64,000 nucleotides of DNA, taken from the NCBI GenBank assembly GCA_033648345.1, contig GCA_033648345.1_4121.1; one strand, 5' to 3'. Origin of the DNA: a phage. Below the pieces are notes generated by a model. It had not been told where the DNA came from and did no database searches. It saw nothing but the letters and a program-made list of their open reading frames with translations. The position numbers and the translations under genes were made by a program. This document shows, one piece after another, positions 5,949 to 46,079 of the stretch (positions within the stretch are counted from its first letter, which is position 1; every line of letters begins with the position of its first letter).

Positions 5949-6146
5949 GTGACTAAAGCAGAACTTGTAGCATTATTGGAATCATATCCCGATGATGCAT
6001 GTATTGAAGTTGTTCATAATGCGAGACATTTTGACATTGAAGATGTAGTACGTTATAATGACAAAGGTGTACTCATCATGGAACTATGTATTGGTGAAAT
6101 GAAAACTGTACCCGAATCAGAAAAACGTAAAAATAGTAAACCGTAA
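5949..6146 (+). CDS. hypothetical protein
   Basis: ORF in track (GTG start) after GAGGAA. Confidence 0.45.
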   Translation: MTKAELVALLESYPDDACIEVVHNARHFDIEDVVRYNDKGVLIMELCIGEMKTVPESEKRKNSKP

Positions 6147-6156
6147 GGAAAATAAA

Positions 6157-6375
6157 ATGGAATCTACTCTATTAGAAGTTATTAACTCATTAAACGCTGG
6201 CGACAATGTTCAAGTACTCCTTCAGGGATATCGTGTAAAAGGTTCAGTAGTTTTAGTTAATGATACCACTGTTGTTGTAACTGAAACTAACCCGTTTGAC
6301 AGTAATGAACTTGCTAATATCCATATTGATATTAAAAGTATTATTGGTGTTGGTGTAACTAAACCACAAGAATAA
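6157..6375 (+). CDS. hypothetical protein
   Basis: ORF in track with AAGGAAAA RBS-like upstream. Confidence 0.45.
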   Translation: MESTLLEVINSLNAGDNVQVLLQGYRVKGSVVLVNDTTVVVTETNPFDSNELANIHIDIKSIIGVGVTKPQE

Positions 6376-24107: not shown

Positions 24108-24135
24108 AGGGTTGACTTCGGTCAGCCTTTTTTTT
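24108..24135 (+). terminator. PeSL-like stem-loop plus T8 (terminator; -10 degenerate in this copy)
   Basis: ggttgac-ttcg-gtcagcc hairpin followed by T8. Confidence 0.6.
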
Positions 24136-36483: not shown

Positions 36484-36514
36484 GGGTTGACTTCGGTCAA
36501 CCTTTATATATAAT
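36484..36514 (+). promoter_or_regulatory. PeSL cassette
   Basis: ggttgac-TTCG-gtcaacc then tataat. Confidence 0.7.
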
Positions 36515-36527
36515 GGAAGAAATAAAC

Positions 36528-37055
36528 ATGGAACGTTGGAAATTAATTCCTGATTATGACTATTCAATTTCTGATCATGGAAGAGTAAGAAACGAACAAA
36601 CTGGATATATAAGTTGTGGATTTAAAAATAAAGATGGGTATGTGAAGGTCGATTTGTATCGCAATTCTGTGAAAAATAGAAAGGCGATTCATCGACTAGT
36701 AGCTGAAGCATTTTTACCACCACCCACACAGAAACAGTTACAGTGGGCGAGTAGAACAAAGAAAAAAGTTGTTCACATAAACCATAAAGATTGTAATAGA
36801 AGTAACAATCACTATTTGAATTTGGAATGGAGCACAGCATCTGAAAACGTACTATATTCTTATTCACATGGTAACGCAACAACTAATCGTGGTGCTGCTG
36901 TGTTGACATGGGAAATTGTAAGAGAAATAAGAAAAGATTATAATGATAATTATAATGATGTGATAGAATATGCACGAGAAAATTGTAATAAATACCGTGT
37001 ATGTAAAAAAACAATACGTCGTATTTTATACAATCAAACATGGATAGAGGATTAA
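36528..37055 (+). CDS. HNH homing endonuclease (NUMOD4-like N-terminus plus HNH)
   Basis: WKLIPDYDYSISDHGRVRN and HINHKDCNRSNNHYLNLEWSTASEN; start set to ATG 36528 because track start overlaps the -10 box. Confidence 0.8.
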   Translation: MERWKLIPDYDYSISDHGRVRNEQTGYISCGFKNKDGYVKVDLYRNSVKNRKAIHRLVAEAFLPPPTQKQLQWASRTKKKVVHINHKDCNRSNNHYLNLEWSTASENVLYSYSHGNATTNRGAAVLTWEIVREIRKDYNDNYNDVIEYARENCNKYRVCKKTIRRILYNQTWIED

Positions 37056-38624: not shown

Positions 38625-38876
38625 ATGTTTAAATATGTTTTATTTTCACTTGTATTGTTTACTGATATAGTTTATAGTACTGAATACCAGTGCTCCATTG
38701 CTAGACAGGAGTTTAGAAACGGTGAGTTCTATACCAAGTCTTACACTAGAGGATTGGTACATGACAATAATAAAACTATAGGGTTCAATGCATTTGATAA
38801 CAAAGATCGATATACGTCTGGAATACTATCTGAACGTAAGTCGGATATACTAGGTATCGAGCGTGAATTCCGGTGA
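38625..38876 (+). CDS. secreted small protein
   Basis: ORF in track; hydrophobic leader. Confidence 0.4.
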   Translation: MFKYVLFSLVLFTDIVYSTEYQCSIARQEFRNGEFYTKSYTRGLVHDNNKTIGFNAFDNKDRYTSGILSERKSDILGIEREFR

Positions 38877-39237
38877 CACGGTTGCAATGTGTAATGATAT
38901 TGAGAGTACTAAGAAAGTATATACTAATGGTGAAAATACTTTTAGATTCCACAATCTTACTACCAATGAAAGTTTATACTTCTACAACTGTAAAGAGTTC
39001 ATTAAACCTGTGGATAACTCATGTGATATGCCGGAGCCAAAAGCTGCTGTATGTGAGGAACCACAATCCAAAGCTGACAAAGATTCAAAAGATAAGAAAG
39101 ACAAAGCTGACAAATCGGATAAAAAAGAAAACAAAAAGAAAGCTAAAGATGATAAAGATAAAAAGTCCCCTAAGCCAAATCCATTTGAAAAGCCAAAGAA
39201 TGAAAAGCCAAAACCAGACATGACATGTAAAATATAA
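38863..39237 (+). CDS. hypothetical protein with Lys/Asp-rich low-complexity tail
   Basis: ORF in track; KKDKADKSDKKENKKKAKDDKDKK; competing overlapping frame. Confidence 0.4.
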   Translation: MNSGDTVAMCNDIESTKKVYTNGENTFRFHNLTTNESLYFYNCKEFIKPVDNSCDMPEPKAAVCEEPQSKADKDSKDKKDKADKSDKKENKKKAKDDKDKKSPKPNPFEKPKNEKPKPDMTCKI

Positions 39238-39242
39238 AAGAA

Positions 39243-39277
39243 AAGGGTTGACTTCGGTCGGCCCTTTTTGCTATAAT
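39243..39277 (+). promoter_or_regulatory. PeSL cassette
   Basis: gggttgac-TTCG-gtcggccc then tataat. Confidence 0.7.
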
Positions 39278-39303
39278 CATTTCATCAACTACTGGAGGTA
39301 AAC

Positions 39304-39717
39304 ATGTTAAAAGTTATTTTCCGTTCTATCAGTTCATTACTTCTTATGATTAGTTCAGTTTGTTATGCAAATGAAGTATCTGATTTATTTGAGAAGAATT
39401 ACCCAACCGCACAAGAGATGGGTGTTTTAAAATGCAAGCTAACTTCGTACAACATCATCGGCAGTAAACTTGTACTGGAACATGAACGTAGTACACCAAT
39501 CCCTCTAGTAGAAGAAGGCAGTACCTTTAGCTTCAAGTACGGGGTGAATGTAACATCTGGTGTAATGAACAATGTTGATGCAGAGACTGGTTCAACATGG
39601 AGTACTAGCGGTAAAGATGTGTTTCATCGTATGCGTGAAAATGGTAAACTGAAGTACGTATATGAAAGTTCATTCATGAAACGTGTATTCATTATAAAAA
39701 ATTGTGTACCAGCATAA
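39304..39717 (+). CDS. secreted protein (signal peptide)
   Basis: leader ...LLMISSVCYA; GGAGG RBS. Confidence 0.5.
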   Translation: MLKVIFRSISSLLLMISSVCYANEVSDLFEKNYPTAQEMGVLKCKLTSYNIIGSKLVLEHERSTPIPLVEEGSTFSFKYGVNVTSGVMNNVDAETGSTWSTSGKDVFHRMRENGKLKYVYESSFMKRVFIIKNCVPA

Positions 39718-40014: not shown

Positions 40015-40353
40015 ATGGAACAACATTTTGAATTAATTAATAAGGTATCATTTTATGTAGTATCGTTAATTTGGGTGTATTACATGTTTTGTTACATTAT
40101 TGCATTCTTCCGATACACAACCTTGTATCAACGCATATACTACGATGCACCCATTTCATTTATGATGTTCTGTGCATGTACGTGGGGGATAATTGAAGCA
40201 CTGGTATGTGGATATAGTACTGACGAATTAAATCTCGTATCGGTGTTGACATTACTAACAATTGCTACTATGATAGCTACTGTTCCGATATTTTTGCTCT
40301 TTAAACTGCTTCATCGCATCGATGAGTGGCGTAATAAAATCCCTGAAAAGTAA
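40015..40353 (+). CDS. small membrane protein, tandem-array family (C-terminal R-x-K-I/M-P-E/N-K/R tail)
   Basis: hydrophobic helices; C-terminus RNKIPEK; paralogous to 45394-47833 array. Confidence 0.55.
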   Translation: MEQHFELINKVSFYVVSLIWVYYMFCYIIAFFRYTTLYQRIYYDAPISFMMFCACTWGIIEALVCGYSTDELNLVSVLTLLTIATMIATVPIFLLFKLLHRIDEWRNKIPEK

Positions 40354-40362
40354 GGATTGATA

Positions 40363-40704
40363 ATGATTTTTTACACTAATGCGTTTGCTTATGCCGTTGC
40401 ATCAATCTACATTGTGTACTTCTTATTTGGTGGAGTACTGTACTTCTTTAAGTACAAAACATTGTTTAACCGAATGTATCCAAATCATCCAATTGTAGTA
40501 GTACTTTTGATTATTTCTGTTGCTCACATCATTGTAGAAACAATAATGGGTATCAGTGCAGTACATTACAGTCTAGGTACTATTGTAATTATTACTATGA
40601 TCATCGCATACATTTTAGTAATGGGTTTTGGTTTATTTGGAAATGTAGCAATGAAATTGTATAATCGAATCAAAACATTACGTGATAATCTACCGGAGCG
40701 TTGA
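40363..40704 (+). CDS. small membrane protein, tandem-array family
   Basis: C-terminus RDNLPER; coupled. Confidence 0.55.
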   Translation: MIFYTNAFAYAVASIYIVYFLFGGVLYFFKYKTLFNRMYPNHPIVVVLLIISVAHIIVETIMGISAVHYSLGTIVIITMIIAYILVMGFGLFGNVAMKLYNRIKTLRDNLPER

Positions 40705-40705
40705 G

Positions 40706-41050
40706 ATGTATAATTTAAATTTAATATCATATATCATAACAACACTGTTTACTTTCTATGCCTTTGTTGGTATACTCCTACTGTACTTTAAATTTTATAA
40801 ACTTTTTGATCGTTTTTATCCGTCATTAGAACATGAATTCTTATTAGTGATGTACATATGTCTAACGTTTATGTCTACATTTTTCACTGCATCTGATGGT
40901 ATCATTGGTATTAAAGCTGAAGAACCAAATGGGAGTACGCTTGTTGCCTTTATTCTGGTAGGATTTTTCAGTACTTATATTACCTTTATTTCAGGATGTA
41001 CCGTGATTGATTATCTTGTGAAATTACGAGATAAAATGCCAAATCGATAG
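40706..41050 (+). CDS. small membrane protein, tandem-array family
   Basis: C-terminus RDKMPNR. Confidence 0.55.
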   Translation: MYNLNLISYIITTLFTFYAFVGILLLYFKFYKLFDRFYPSLEHEFLLVMYICLTFMSTFFTASDGIIGIKAEEPNGSTLVAFILVGFFSTYITFISGCTVIDYLVKLRDKMPNR

Positions 41051-41059
41051 GGGATTGCT

Positions 41060-41317
41060 ATGTTTGCATTGCGTAATAAAAATACAAAAGAGATTCTGTG
41101 TATCTCAACAGTATGGGATTGTGCAGGAAGTGAAATGATTCTCGAAGAAGGTTCAGGTGATTGTGTTTATGTTGTTCAGGATCGTCGCGAACTGGAATCA
41201 TTACTTGACGAATTTAATGCTGGTGGAAATCCTAAAAGTACTCAATTCCCTGAGATCAGGAATCCAGCACCACCAGGCTCTTATGAAATTCTACAACTGT
41301 GGGAGATGGATAAGTAA
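41060..41317 (+). CDS. hypothetical small protein
   Basis: ORF in track. Confidence 0.4.
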   Translation: MFALRNKNTKEILCISTVWDCAGSEMILEEGSGDCVYVVQDRRELESLLDEFNAGGNPKSTQFPEIRNPAPPGSYEILQLWEMDK

Positions 41318-41698: not shown

Positions 41699-41726
41699 TT
41701 GACAAACTCATTCAGTACTGTATAAT
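41699..41726 (+). promoter_or_regulatory. early-type promoter TTGACA-N16-(TG)TATAAT with CAGTACTG spacer
   Basis: ttgacaaactcattcagtactgtataat. Confidence 0.6.
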
Positions 41727-41773: not shown

Positions 41774-42328
41774 ATGATTACTTTTAAGAAAACTGCTAAC
41801 CACATCCATGAGATCTACATTAACGGTCACAAAGCTGGCCTTCTTCGTTTACTCGCCCATCATCCGAATATTACCGTATCTGATAATGAACCTAAAGATT
41901 GGCGTGTATTTTTCTTTGGAAAGTACAGTGATTTTCAAGTATCAAACCTGAAGAACATTCGTTCAGTATGCACGTTAACTGAAATTAAAGAAAAGTTAAC
42001 CAAAGCATTGAAAACTAATCCAGATAGTGTTCTTCCACCTGATAACTTTGTAGAGAAAGGATATGCCTTAGCTCATTTCAAAGATGGTACTATTCAATCT
42101 ATCAGTACTGAATATGAATATCAATGGACTGAGTACTTCACTTATGGATCGCGTAATACATTGATGGCTTCACGTAGTAAATTGGAAGAAGTACTGACTC
42201 GTATGAATGAACGCGAGCGTCAATTTTATGACAAACCAGAAATGTGGAGTTCAACTTACATTGACCGTATTGACTATGTTATTATGACTCCAATCTTTGA
42301 CACTGCTTACTATGATTCTTTGAAATAA
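41774..42328 (+). CDS. hypothetical protein
   Basis: ORF in track after GAGGAA. Confidence 0.5.
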   Translation: MITFKKTANHIHEIYINGHKAGLLRLLAHHPNITVSDNEPKDWRVFFFGKYSDFQVSNLKNIRSVCTLTEIKEKLTKALKTNPDSVLPPDNFVEKGYALAHFKDGTIQSISTEYEYQWTEYFTYGSRNTLMASRSKLEEVLTRMNERERQFYDKPEMWSSTYIDRIDYVIMTPIFDTAYYDSLK

Positions 42329-42544
42329 GGATAACTTATATGAAACTACGTACTCGTAATCGACTGATGGATGCACTGTACCATGAACAGCTTTCACTGA
42401 ATGAAGTGAAGCGTCAGTTAATGTACACATATCTGTTACCCGCTCGCATTGCAAAACAACGTGCTAAAGAATTGCTGAAAGAAGCAATCGAGTACTGGGA
42501 ATCTGATTCGTACTAATTGTCACGTTAATTAAGTGAGGCGATAA

Positions 42545-42796
42545 ATGAAAATTTTATTAGTTCTAATACTACTAATTGTTTTACCATTTACGTTAGTATC
42601 CCCTGAACTTGCATGGAATGTGTTTGTGTACTTACTATGTACTATTGTAGTAAATGGTATCTTGTTCTTAGTTCTATTCATAAATGGAATAGGACACGGT
42701 GGAGGATGGACCAGTACTGCTGATATTGTACATAAAACCACTATGTCTTTATTTGTAGTGTGGAATTTATTCTGGACTTGGTTTGTGTTCTTCTAA
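42545..42796 (+). CDS. small membrane protein
   Basis: hydrophobic throughout. Confidence 0.4.
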   Translation: MKILLVLILLIVLPFTLVSPELAWNVFVYLLCTIVVNGILFLVLFINGIGHGGGWTSTADIVHKTTMSLFVVWNLFWTWFVFF

Positions 42797-42805
42797 TTAA
42801 AAAAT

Positions 42806-43177
42806 ATGAATATAGATTTGAAAGGTGCAACCCGAACTGTCATACTCATTGGGGAATATGCTATCAAGATTCCAACCTTTAAAAGTTGGAAGCTATTCTT
42901 AACAGGGATGATAGCTAACCTCAATGAACGTTCTTGGATGCAGTACTCCAAGCGTAGTGATAGTGGTATCTGCCCTACGTTGTGGTCATCATGTACTGGA
43001 CTAGTAACTGTACAGAAACGTTGTAAGCCAGTACAACATAGGGGTTTATTTTGGGTGGAGTTGTGTGCTTTAGCATTGGATTCAGAGTTGAGTACTGACT
43101 TCTTCTATTCAGATGCGAAGCCAGAAAACTTTGGGTATCTGGGTGGTAAGTTAGTTAAACTTGATTATGGAGATTAA
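42806..43177 (+). CDS. minimal protein-kinase-like protein (123 aa)
   Basis: YAIKIP (VAIK-like), DAKPENFG (HRDLKPEN-like catalytic loop) and VKLDYGD (DFG-like) at kinase-appropriate spacing; no C-lobe. Confidence 0.45.
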   Translation: MNIDLKGATRTVILIGEYAIKIPTFKSWKLFLTGMIANLNERSWMQYSKRSDSGICPTLWSSCTGLVTVQKRCKPVQHRGLFWVELCALALDSELSTDFFYSDAKPENFGYLGGKLVKLDYGD

Positions 43178-43178
43178 T

Positions 43179-43601
43179 ATGTACGCACTGTATAATAAAG
43201 AAAAGAAACAATTTGCTAAGGTTGAAAAATCGATTGATACATTTGGCATGTTTAAGTACTGTATTGTGACGGACCCATATGCTAACTTGTATTACGTTCT
43301 TGATGACGTATCAGTACTGCAACGATTGCTTGAACGTTCCAAAAGCCAATGTCAAGGTATCCATGATGGTTCAACTTATGAAACACCTGAGTGTTCCTAT
43401 GGCTATCTGGATGGGTATGAGATTGTGAAGTTGGGTGCATTGTTGATTAATGAGGAATTTATGAAACTATGTACATGTGATGATTGTGGTAAACAAATAC
43501 CAGAAAGTGAAGTATATCGTAATGAAACTGCATTCGGTGATGATGGTGACTACTGTCAGGATTGTTTTTACGAGAACCATTATGATTTTGGCGATGATTA
43601 A
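43179..43601 (+). CDS. hypothetical protein with Cys-rich C-terminus (possible zinc ribbon)
   Basis: track ORF trimmed to ATG 43179; CTCDDCGK...DYCQDCF. Confidence 0.45.
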   Translation: MYALYNKEKKQFAKVEKSIDTFGMFKYCIVTDPYANLYYVLDDVSVLQRLLERSKSQCQGIHDGSTYETPECSYGYLDGYEIVKLGALLINEEFMKLCTCDDCGKQIPESEVYRNETAFGDDGDYCQDCFYENHYDFGDD

Positions 43602-43605
43602 AACA

Positions 43606-43640
43606 AAGGGTTGACTTCGGTCAGCCCTTTTTGTTATAAT
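43606..43640 (+). promoter_or_regulatory. PeSL cassette upstream of denV
   Basis: gggttgac-TTCG-gtcagccc then tataat. Confidence 0.7.
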
Positions 43641-43668: not shown

Positions 43669-44145
43669 ATGACACGCATTAACTTAGTACACGTTAAAGA
43701 ACTTGCTGACCAACATCTGATGGCTGAATATCGTGAACTCCCACGTGTATTTGGTGCTGTACAAAAACACGTTCAAGCACGTAAGCGTGTACGTGATTTC
43801 AAAATTAACAGTACTTACCTGTTAGGTTCAGGTCATGTAACATTCTTCTACAACAAGTTATTGTACTTACAGAAGCGTCATATTGAAATTGTTAACGAAT
43901 GTTTGCGTCGTGGTATGAAGATTCAAAACATTGAATTAAACGACATTAGCGGCTTCCCTGCTGAGTTTTGTAATGACTACGTACCATCGGAGTCAGAGAT
44001 TAAAATGTCTCGTGAGCGTTTGATTGAGAAGCTACAGATGAAGCCTACGTGGTATAAGTTTACTGATGTTGAATGTCCACAGTACGTTAAAGATATGTTG
44101 AATGAAATTGAAGAACAAATCAAAGATGAAATGAATAACTATTAA
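43669..44145 (+). CDS. denV: DenV-type pyrimidine-dimer DNA glycosylase (T4 endonuclease V family)
   Basis: MTRINL...[21 protein letters not shown]...KRVRDFKI...GHVTFFY...RPTWYK closely matches the T4 endonuclease V sequence as I recall it. Confidence 0.93.
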
Positions 44146-45393: not shown

Positions 45394-45732
45394 ATGCTTG
45401 AGTTTTTTAATTCAGATACAATGCTTAGTATTACTTTGATTTATCTGTTTGGTTTTTTCTTTTATCATGCACTAGTTGTAGTACTATGGTATTTTAAAAA
45501 GAAAATCGTTTTCAAACTGTATCCTGATGGAAACATTTCACTACTTCTTTTCACTATTATCCAAGGTATGTTTGCAATTGTTGGTCTTATCGCACACTTA
45601 ATTTATTGTGCTAATCCACAGTTGAACTCAATATCACAATATATTGTATTCCTTGGATTACTAATTTGGGTGCTGATATACTTGTTTAATATCATCATTA
45701 ATGGTCGAGCAAAAATTCGTGGGGACTTCTAA
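45394..45732 (+). CDS. small membrane protein, tandem-array family member 1
   Basis: hydrophobic helices; YFKKKIVFKLYP motif. Confidence 0.55.
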   Translation: MLEFFNSDTMLSITLIYLFGFFFYHALVVVLWYFKKKIVFKLYPDGNISLLLFTIIQGMFAIVGLIAHLIYCANPQLNSISQYIVFLGLLIWVLIYLFNIIINGRAKIRGDF

Positions 45733-46079
45733 TGTTTGAATCTTATCTTGAGTTTTTAAAGAGTAGTTCTGTTGCACATTCAATTGCAGGGATTATTCTA
45801 ACAGGTTATGTAACATTTTGGGTAGTTATGTTTCTAGGATGGTATTTTAAACGACAATTCTATAAGCGTAATGGTGAAGATTTTATGAATTCTGTTATTA
45901 ATCAATCGTTGTTTGCATCAACATTGATAGCATGTATTGTAGCAACACTCACAGGAAAGGTACTGCCAGCATTCTCCGCAGTTTACGGTACATTGGGTAT
46001 GATATGTGTAGTTTTTTACTTGATCATTAAACTTTGTTGTGTTATGATTGACCTTCGAAACAAGATACCGGAGGAATGA
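45732..46079 (+). CDS. small membrane protein, tandem-array family member 2
   Basis: C-terminus RNKIPEE; ATGA-type coupling. Confidence 0.55.
   Translation: MFESYLEFLKSSSVAHSIAGIILTGYVTFWVVMFLGWYFKRQFYKRNGEDFMNSVINQSLFASTLIACIVATLTGKVLPAFSAVYGTLGMICVVFYLIIKLCCVMIDLRNKIPEE

Follow-up and report, generated by a model that had tools for sequence, protein, structure and literature searches.

A 123-residue kinase-like phage protein as a candidate minimal phosphotransferase

The gene analysed here is a plus-strand open reading frame (ORF) at positions 42806–43177 of a 64,000-nucleotide stretch of phage DNA (contig GCA_033648345.1_4121.1; hereafter, the window), which starts with ATG and encodes a protein of 123 amino acids (aa) that we call the mini-kinase. 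We are highly confident that this protein takes a kinase-like fold and that the ORF is a genuine, selected gene. Functionally, we posit, at what we judge to be even chances, that it is an active minimal phosphotransferase, expressed early, whose open active site and loose choice of substrates would serve host takeover or counter-defence; ATP binding, catalysis, protein substrates, and the takeover or counter-defence role are all inferred. The 6 kb around the gene are 90–97% identical to Asteriusvirus jumbo coliphages (121Q, PBECO4, G17, Sharanji, and Ecwhy_1; ~350 kb), and Ecwhy_1 encodes an identical protein (100%; ‘hypothetical protein’), with counterparts of 95–99% identity in ~30 other phages.

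Motifs and predicted fold of the mini-kinase

The kinase-like elements of the gene, all on the plus strand, are as follows.
42806–43177, plus strand: mini-kinase coding sequence (PHROG 4301 match, AlphaFold2 model, kinase fold)
42824–42841, plus strand: atypical nucleotide loop G7-A-T9-R10-T-V12 between beta1 and beta2 (conservation; AlphaFold2 strands 2–4 and 10–15)
42857–42874, plus strand: beta3 ‘VAIK’ motif Y18-A-I-K21-I-P23 with the predicted ATP-anchoring Lys (conservation; AlphaFold2 strand 18–23)
42896–42928, plus strand: alphaC motif F31-L-x-G34-x-x-x-N38-x-x-E41 with the predicted Glu partner of K21 (conservation; AlphaFold2 helix 28–43)
43112–43135, plus strand: putative catalytic loop D103-A-K105-P-E-N108-F-G110 of the DxKPxN form (conservation; alignment to TTK and PKA)
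43163–43171, plus strand: DFG-equivalent D120-Y-G122, followed by one more residue and the stop codon (conservation; family tail lengths)

The coordinates and sequence in the initial annotation were correct, as were its three motifs (YAIKIP, DAKPENFG, and VKLDYGD), and the kinase-like spacing that it claimed is borne out, with 20 aa from K21 to E41 and 17 aa from D103 to D120 against 19 and 18 in PKA. The last motif, V117-K-L-D120-Y-G-D123, runs into the stop codon three residues past D120, so that the protein does end without a C-lobe, as had been noted, and 211 of 254 relatives share this trait. The stretch Y-S-D103-A-K-P-E-N108 together with D120-Y-G has the Hanks catalytic-loop and DFG pattern, with no His or Arg preceding D103, and a DxKPxN loop is the form found in Ser/Thr-specific Hanks kinases. 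The GxGxxG of the glycine-rich loop is missing: the loop reads K-G7-A-T-R10-T-V, with a single conserved Gly and an invariant R10, which probably occupies the position of the third glycine, judging from how the GEGIHRKVF loop of PaMx11-type members lines up with it. Also missing, relative to Hanks-type kinases, are helix D, the activation segment with its APE motif, helix F, and the GHI subdomain (subdomains VIII–XI).

Structurally, an AlphaFold2 model built from a 69-sequence alignment (pLDDT 94.4, pTM 0.84) has the order beta1-beta2-beta3, helix 28–43, beta4-beta5, helix 79–92, a short helix, and beta7-beta8, the order in which a kinase N-lobe leads into helix E, catalytic loop, and DFG strand pair. 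The model thus holds the elements of the protein-kinase-like (PKL) fold, with five antiparallel strands and helix C, then helix E, the catalytic loop, and beta7-beta8; structure prediction had been named beforehand as a test of the kinase claim, and it returned a kinase fold and no unrelated one. Foldseek matches in the PDB were exclusively kinases (TTK/Mps1, Legionella Lpg2603, and WbdD; probability ~1.0, TMq 0.5–0.66), the shortest solved kinase-like chains among those listed being 160–176 residues, and in BFVD the same fold was found in family members of other phages and in further small kinase-like proteins of jumbo phages.

Sequence comparison points the same way at lower significance. 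The family profile matched only TTK/Mps1 among PDB sequences (E 0.1–0.7), over helix E, catalytic loop, and DFG, with the mini-kinase loop aligned to HsDLKPaNf of TTK. Comparison with the single PKA sequence by hhalign covered only the catalytic loop and DFG (RDLKPEN; 29 columns, P 0.015, probability 3%) and is too weak alone; the case for a kinase assignment is carried by the predicted fold instead. Among 69 members, the only recurrent sub-threshold Pfam matches were to the kinase families ABC1 (6) and FAM69 (5), and the PADLOC models gave no match to the mini-kinase and four single-member, chance-level matches to the others.

The residues that would form the active site are among the most constrained in the family. 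In an alignment of 254 family representatives, from which all conservation counts were taken, the nucleotide loop keeps G7 in 250, T9 in 226 (Ser in 18 more), R10 in 252, and V12 in 241; beta3 keeps K21 in 253 and P23 in 247; alphaC keeps F31 in 241, G34 in 251, N38 in 250, and E41 in all 254; and G65 is conserved in 243. Within the catalytic loop, D103 is present in 187 (Glu in 63 more, hence an acidic residue in 250), K105 in 222, N108 in 194 (Ser in 54 more, hence Asn or Ser in 248), and G110 in 247, and at the DFG-equivalent D120 is found in 252, Y121 in 209, and G122 in 211. One subgroup has VENKxDSFG in place of SDAKPENFG. The mini-kinase itself has the complete PKL catalytic set (K21, E41, D103, N108, and D120), alongside invariants specific to the family, namely R10 in the GxTRxV loop and G34 and N38 in helix C. 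By these counts the classical protein-kinase catalytic set is under strong selection across the family, and because all catalytic positions are strongly constrained across such diverse representatives, an enzyme is favoured over a scaffold. Of the options left by the initial annotation, a minimal or atypical kinase is thus the one supported, by family conservation, the alignment of the profile to TTK, and fold matches confined to kinases; convergence is unlikely, as the match extends beyond short motifs to the whole predicted fold and every catalytic position.

A widespread family in varied genomic contexts

The mini-kinase matches PHROG 4301 (unknown function) with an E-value of 1.8e-43, its residues 2–122 falling on profile positions 40–167 of 225, and all 69 aligned homologues match the same model. 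Word-indexed searches recovered 15 and then 140 homologues, nearly all of 115–135 aa and none with a Pfam domain, and an exhaustive profile search of 1.84 billion cluster representatives (clusters at 50% identity) returned 1,214 representatives at E ≤0.001 and 639 at E ≤1e-10, almost all of 110–135 aa. In the 254 aligned representatives, the tail past the DFG-type Asp has a median of 3 residues, and 211 end within 0–4 residues of it. A few members carry N- or C-terminal extensions, and longer relatives occur in Kc263 (267 aa, annotated ‘PknA’), OBP (gp197, 273 aa), and RP12 (ORF186, 209 aa). From these lengths, we read the mini-kinase as a family member whose short length is inherited, and not as a fragment. 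A metagenomic protein, P0138 (1073 aa, ~67-residue repeats), matched profile positions 50–101 in 16 stretches and was set aside as probably a spurious tandem-repeat translation.

No curated model covers the family, which PHROGs lists as unknown. Some GenBank records carry the automatic annotation ‘serine/threonine kinase’ on distant homologues (Kc263, AH04, PAKlein3, and pEa_SNUABM_5), and UniProt labels the RP12 homologue ‘protein kinase domain-containing’; the family is an extreme new form of a known fold class, not a new kind of system. A further label, ‘virion structural protein’ in Shewanella phage SXP01, was rejected, since the ORFs that bear it are neighbours of the gene and the label is handed out indiscriminately in that phage. 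Some GenBank records leave the gene un- or under-annotated: in IME341 (L002, 2477–2845) only the last 54 codons are covered, and in phAPEC6 (MK817115.1, 22182–22550) the gene has no feature at all, and therefore proteomics built on those annotations could not detect the protein.

Across phages, the gene lies between ipI and the tRNA cluster in Tequatrovirus; between hoc and RNA ligase 2 in Dhakavirus, where it is under-annotated; and among minus-strand replication genes in Felixounavirus, as the lone plus-strand gene. Other members are encoded by PaMx11/M6-like siphoviruses, by jumbo phages of Erwinia, Aeromonas, Shewanella, Klebsiella, Ralstonia, and Pseudomonas, and by an Aquimarina prophage, immediately upstream of terminase. 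In Acinetobacter prophages it is embedded in the operon for head-to-tail morphogenesis, with the major capsid gene on one side and the tail tube gene on the other, and its product keeps a canonical DFG (LKRLDFGS). Two prophages of this type (L006 and L009) hold an Acb2/Tad1-hairpin-family gene and the mini-kinase as accessory genes at 2318–2650 and 6001–6360, and in such operons the Acb2/Tad1-like counter-defence gene lies between MuF and scaffold and the mini-kinase among the head-tail joining genes. Taken together, the mini-kinase behaves as a mobile accessory gene of hyperplastic regions in many phage types.

The sole recurrent neighbour, in two lineages, is DenV, a pyrimidine-dimer glycosylase of the T4 endonuclease V type, which both Asteriusviruses and some PaMx11-like phages encode within 500 bp downstream:
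43669–44145 of the window: DenV, downstream of the mini-kinase
L029 4501–4989, L032 2888–3436, L033 495–980, L034 4264–4830, and L035 4500–4994: DenV in loci of PaMx11-like Pseudomonas siphoviruses
The mini-kinases of the two DenV-linked lineages share just ~30% identity, and the association could be a coincidence, an old cassette, or a functional link.

Known kinases, proposed mechanism, and rival readings

The closest functional parallel is the T7 kinase gp0.7 (T7K), an early, hyper-promiscuous Ser/Thr/Tyr kinase that disarms defence systems by mass phosphorylation (PMC13645617). Like T7K, the mini-kinase would be the product of a phage early gene, with a kinase-like core that holds the beta3 Lys, the catalytic loop, and the metal-binding Asp, and neither protein has a canonical activation segment or helices F–I past the DFG position. 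By sequence and AlphaFold2 model, the T7K core extends from the nucleotide loop (~residue 74) to DPV (213–215), followed by coil and a long linker helix; because this core appears to stop at DPV, an active kinase without a post-DFG lobe would have a precedent. T7K differs in that it has ~70 additional helical residues at its N-terminus, one more helix ahead of alphaE, and a shut-off domain at its C-terminus, and its motifs are DMHSGN and DPV against DAKPEN and DYG. Evolutionarily, relatedness was rejected by single-sequence and profile–profile comparison alike: hhalign of the mini-kinase family with a T7K alignment gave a probability of 0.1%, phmmer and hmmsearch were negative, and neither the mini-kinase nor family members matched the T7K models PF27024 and PHROG 2828. 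T7K is the best functional analogue, and the two converge in architecture. Asteriusviruses such as Sharanji encode both types, Sharanji gp144 (224 aa; OR545507.1 66182–66856, L049 383–1057) being a T7K homologue (27% identity, E 3.5e-8) ten genes upstream of the mini-kinase, gp134. No gp144 homologue is present in the window, where the corresponding slot (38996–39716) holds unrelated ORFs (38863–39237 and 39304–39717), and a six-frame search of the window with T7K found no second kinase; related phages therefore differ in their kinase complement.

Hanks-type kinases (TTK/Mps1, PknB; PF00069) are the best structural matches of the mini-kinase and its only sequence matches in the PDB, sharing the N-lobe topology, Lys-Glu pair, DxKPxN, DFG-type Asp, and their spacing. 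The mini-kinase departs from them in matching neither PF00069 nor PF07714, in having GxTRxV for GxGxxG, and in its length (123 aa versus ~250–300). The minimal effector kinases of bacteria OspG, NleH, and HopBF1, with solved chains of 160–176 residues, show no sequence relationship to the family, which is ~25% smaller; they retain helices past the DFG position, and the mini-kinase family has none. Rio, Bud32, and the archaeal RNA kinase Ark1 are proteins of 173–270 residues with C-lobe helices, HxDxxxxN loops, and cellular housekeeping roles. Jumbo phages encode further small kinase-like proteins, mostly of 160–210 aa and from host genomes of the same kind, and in BFVD RaK2 H6X4G3, CBB A0A1L2CVG3/VI5, and RP12 A0A1L7N109 share the fold of the mini-kinase (Foldseek E 1e-9 to 3e-5). 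Identity to the mini-kinase is just 16–20% for those of RaK2 and CBB; RP12 ORF186 is a genuine member of the family and carries a tail of 65 residues.

We posit that the mini-kinase works as a free-standing unit made of a five-stranded N-lobe with alphaC, helix E, the catalytic loop, and an Mg-binding DYG, past which it lacks any activation segment, P+1 loop, or helices F–I. Host RNA polymerase would transcribe the gene early from a consensus sigma-70 promoter. By analogy with residue roles in Hanks-type kinases, K21 and E41 would hold the ATP phosphates, R10 and T9 of the GxTRxV loop would cover them, N108 and D120 would bind Mg2+, and D103 and K105 would transfer the gamma-phosphate. Lacking the half of a normal kinase that docks substrates, the enzyme would be expected to have an open cleft and loose specificity, and it might act in takeover by phosphorylating host or defence proteins, as the unrelated T7 kinase has been shown to do, while a host protein or self-association may stabilise the exposed face of helix E. 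A more far-reaching version, which we advance tentatively and think rather more apt to fail than to hold, is that this ~120-residue family is the smallest autonomous protein kinase; that N-lobe, helix E, catalytic loop, and DFG suffice as a catalytic unit; and that phages use it early as a constitutively open kinase that phosphorylates host or defence proteins promiscuously, perhaps with a borrowed host protein as surrogate C-lobe, with an origin independent of the T7 kinase lineage.

Several observations weigh against an active, early protein kinase. The glycine-rich loop departs from the usual form; the catalytic Asp is replaced by Glu, and Asn108 by Ser, in about a quarter of members; K105 is seemingly lost in the OBP/Kc263 group; and a Pfam scan of the mini-kinase, kinase models included, returned no family even at E ≤10. 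The location in Acinetobacter prophages is a late morphogenesis operon, not an early one, and the repair-enzyme neighbours in some phages (DenV, RNA ligase 2, and DNA ligase) would fit a non-protein substrate as well. The T7K model that supplies the precedent is of moderate confidence (pLDDT 72.5), and searches of the accessible literature found no description of the PHROG 4301 family or of the biochemistry of any member.

A kinase-fold enzyme could instead phosphorylate or adenylylate a small molecule, a nucleotide signal, or an RNA or DNA end, as the fold precedents of aminoglycoside kinases, choline kinases, and the archaeal RNA kinase Ark1 allow, but we think this unlikely: the mini-kinase loop is of the DxKPxN type and not the HxDxxxxN of APH, ChoK, Rio, and Bud32; the repair-gene neighbours do not recur throughout the family; and the sole known phage DNA-base kinase, 5-HMUDK (M6 gp54), is an unrelated P-loop protein. 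PaMx11 and M6 are listed as hypermodifying phages (PMC5889632), and identity of the family with 5-HMUDK was considered and rejected, M6 gp54 carrying a P-loop (GCNGSGKTT) and the M6 family member being a separate gene, gp081; no homology of the mini-kinase to M6 gp54 or ViI gp67 was found. Less likely again, in our view, is a non-catalytic nucleotide binder, be it a pseudokinase-like decoy, a sponge of ATP or an immune nucleotide, an allosteric binder, or a blocker of a host protein. The very small size, the missing scaffold helix F, the substitutions at D103 and N108 in ~25% of members, and the apparent loss of K105 in the OBP/Kc263 group would suit such a role, as would the invariant R10, G34, and N38 outside the catalytic set, which suggest a conserved binding surface, and the operons shared with a sponge-type Acb2/Tad1-like gene in Acinetobacter prophages; yet near-invariant K21, E41, and D120 with an acidic residue 103 in 250 of 254 form a pattern typical of active kinases, not of pseudokinases.

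The two remaining readings concern the missing C-lobe. Were another phage protein to supply it in trans, the exposed face of helix E, which should need a partner, would be explained, and the next ORF begins 1 nucleotide (nt) past the stop codon, suggesting translational coupling; this is nonetheless highly improbable. Clustering of all ORFs within 4 kb at 42 loci turned up no gene family that stays with the mini-kinase from one phage group to the next, neighbours differing among T4-like, Felix-O1-like, PaMx11-like, jumbo, and prophage contexts, and because none travels with it a phage-encoded ‘other half’ is unlikely; the downstream ORF, a PHROG 8563 protein without a Pfam match, does not recur beside the mini-kinase in other phage groups at these loci and has a paralogue elsewhere in the region. 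Least credible of all, to the point of being negligible, is a decayed remnant (a pseudogene or a frameshifted or truncated copy) or a chance ORF with kinase-like motifs. The abrupt end after DYG and the longer tails of Kc263, OBP, and RP12 might hint at a lost lobe, but length and end point are kept in hundreds of diverged homologues, residue conservation is strong, the model is confident and compact, and those tails are low-complexity or charged, with no APE or helix-F-like motif by eye. A six-frame search of the window with the family profile, which represents the N-terminal core and is blind to C-lobes, found the mini-kinase ORF only. The fragment suggested by the initial annotation is accordingly rejected, as homologues in unrelated phages are all ~120 aa, and the frameshifted continuation that it had proposed to look for gave way to an unrelated ORF at 43179–43601; given the conserved length and end point and this unrelated ORF, a frameshifted or decayed full-length kinase is excluded.

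If the active phosphotransferase that we favour is correct, the family would push the minimum size of the protein-kinase fold to a new low, below the solved kinases matched here (at least 160 residues), and would put to the test the textbook notion that catalysis requires helix F and the C-lobe scaffold. An active family would also be a second, independent, and much more widespread phage kinase lineage beside T7K, with ~1,200 clusters spanning T4-like, Felix-O1-like, PaMx11/M6-like, and jumbo phages and prophages, and protein engineers would gain an attractive minimal scaffold in a kinase core of 120 residues. Even as a nucleotide binder, or as a kinase of non-protein substrates, the protein would place a large family of ‘unknown function’ in a biochemical class.

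Transcription unit and surrounding early region

The mini-kinase is the fourth of five tightly packed plus-strand ORFs (41774–42328, 42340–42516, 42545–42796, the mini-kinase, and 43179–43601) that follow a perfect sigma-70 consensus sequence, and the unit is bounded as follows.
41699–41726, plus strand: perfect sigma-70 consensus, TTGACA-16-TATAAT (12/12 match), predicted to act as promoter
43179–43601, plus strand: downstream ORF of 140 aa, PHROG 8563, Cys-rich C-terminus, starting 1 nt past the mini-kinase stop
43605–43630, plus strand: GC-rich hairpin with T-run, terminator-like, at the end of the unit and overlapping a promoter-like TTGACT-18-TATAAT

Matches to the sigma-70 consensus at 11/12 or better number 28 in the window, all on the plus strand between 897 and 44524, against 2.45 expected from shuffles; ten of the plus-strand matches are perfect (0.06 expected), and the minus strand has none at 11/12 or better. 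This ~44-kb region of plus-strand promoters bears the signature of an early region read by host RNA polymerase, and it is from this pattern, together with the consensus promoter heading the unit and the hairpin terminator at its end, that early expression of the mini-kinase is predicted.

The downstream ORF, which has no Pfam match and is not a kinase lobe, is one of two PHROG 8563 paralogues (unknown function) in the window, the other lying at 41060–41317; the copy at 43179–43601 bears an extra Cys-rich CxxC...CxxC C-terminal extension.

An 18-nt hairpin, GGTTGACTTCGGTCAGCC, with a 7-bp stem and a TTCG loop, occurs in eight plus-strand copies (0.04 expected), at 24110, 32235, 35829, 36485, 38564, 39246, 43609, and 44153. 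Six of these (32235, 35829, 36485, 39246, 43609, and 44153) contain a -35-like TTGACT with TATAAT or TATTAT 16–18 nt further on, and the copies at 43609 and 44153 also scan as terminator-like. The hairpin copies look like terminator-plus-early-promoter cassettes, and they recall the PeSL elements of T4-type hyperplastic regions.

Five small ORFs of 112–122 aa, whose products read as hydrophobic and membrane-like, form two tandem groups on either side of the mini-kinase unit (40015–40353, 40357–40704, and 40682–41050; 45394–45732 and 45732–46079), and by eye they are apparent paralogues with similar C-terminal tails (e.g., RNKIPEK, RDNLPER, and RDKMPNR). Finally, the early region holds, between two of the hairpin/promoter cassettes, a 180-aa ORF (36513–37055) whose HKD...N...N stretch, judged by eye, makes it a possible HNH-type homing endonuclease.
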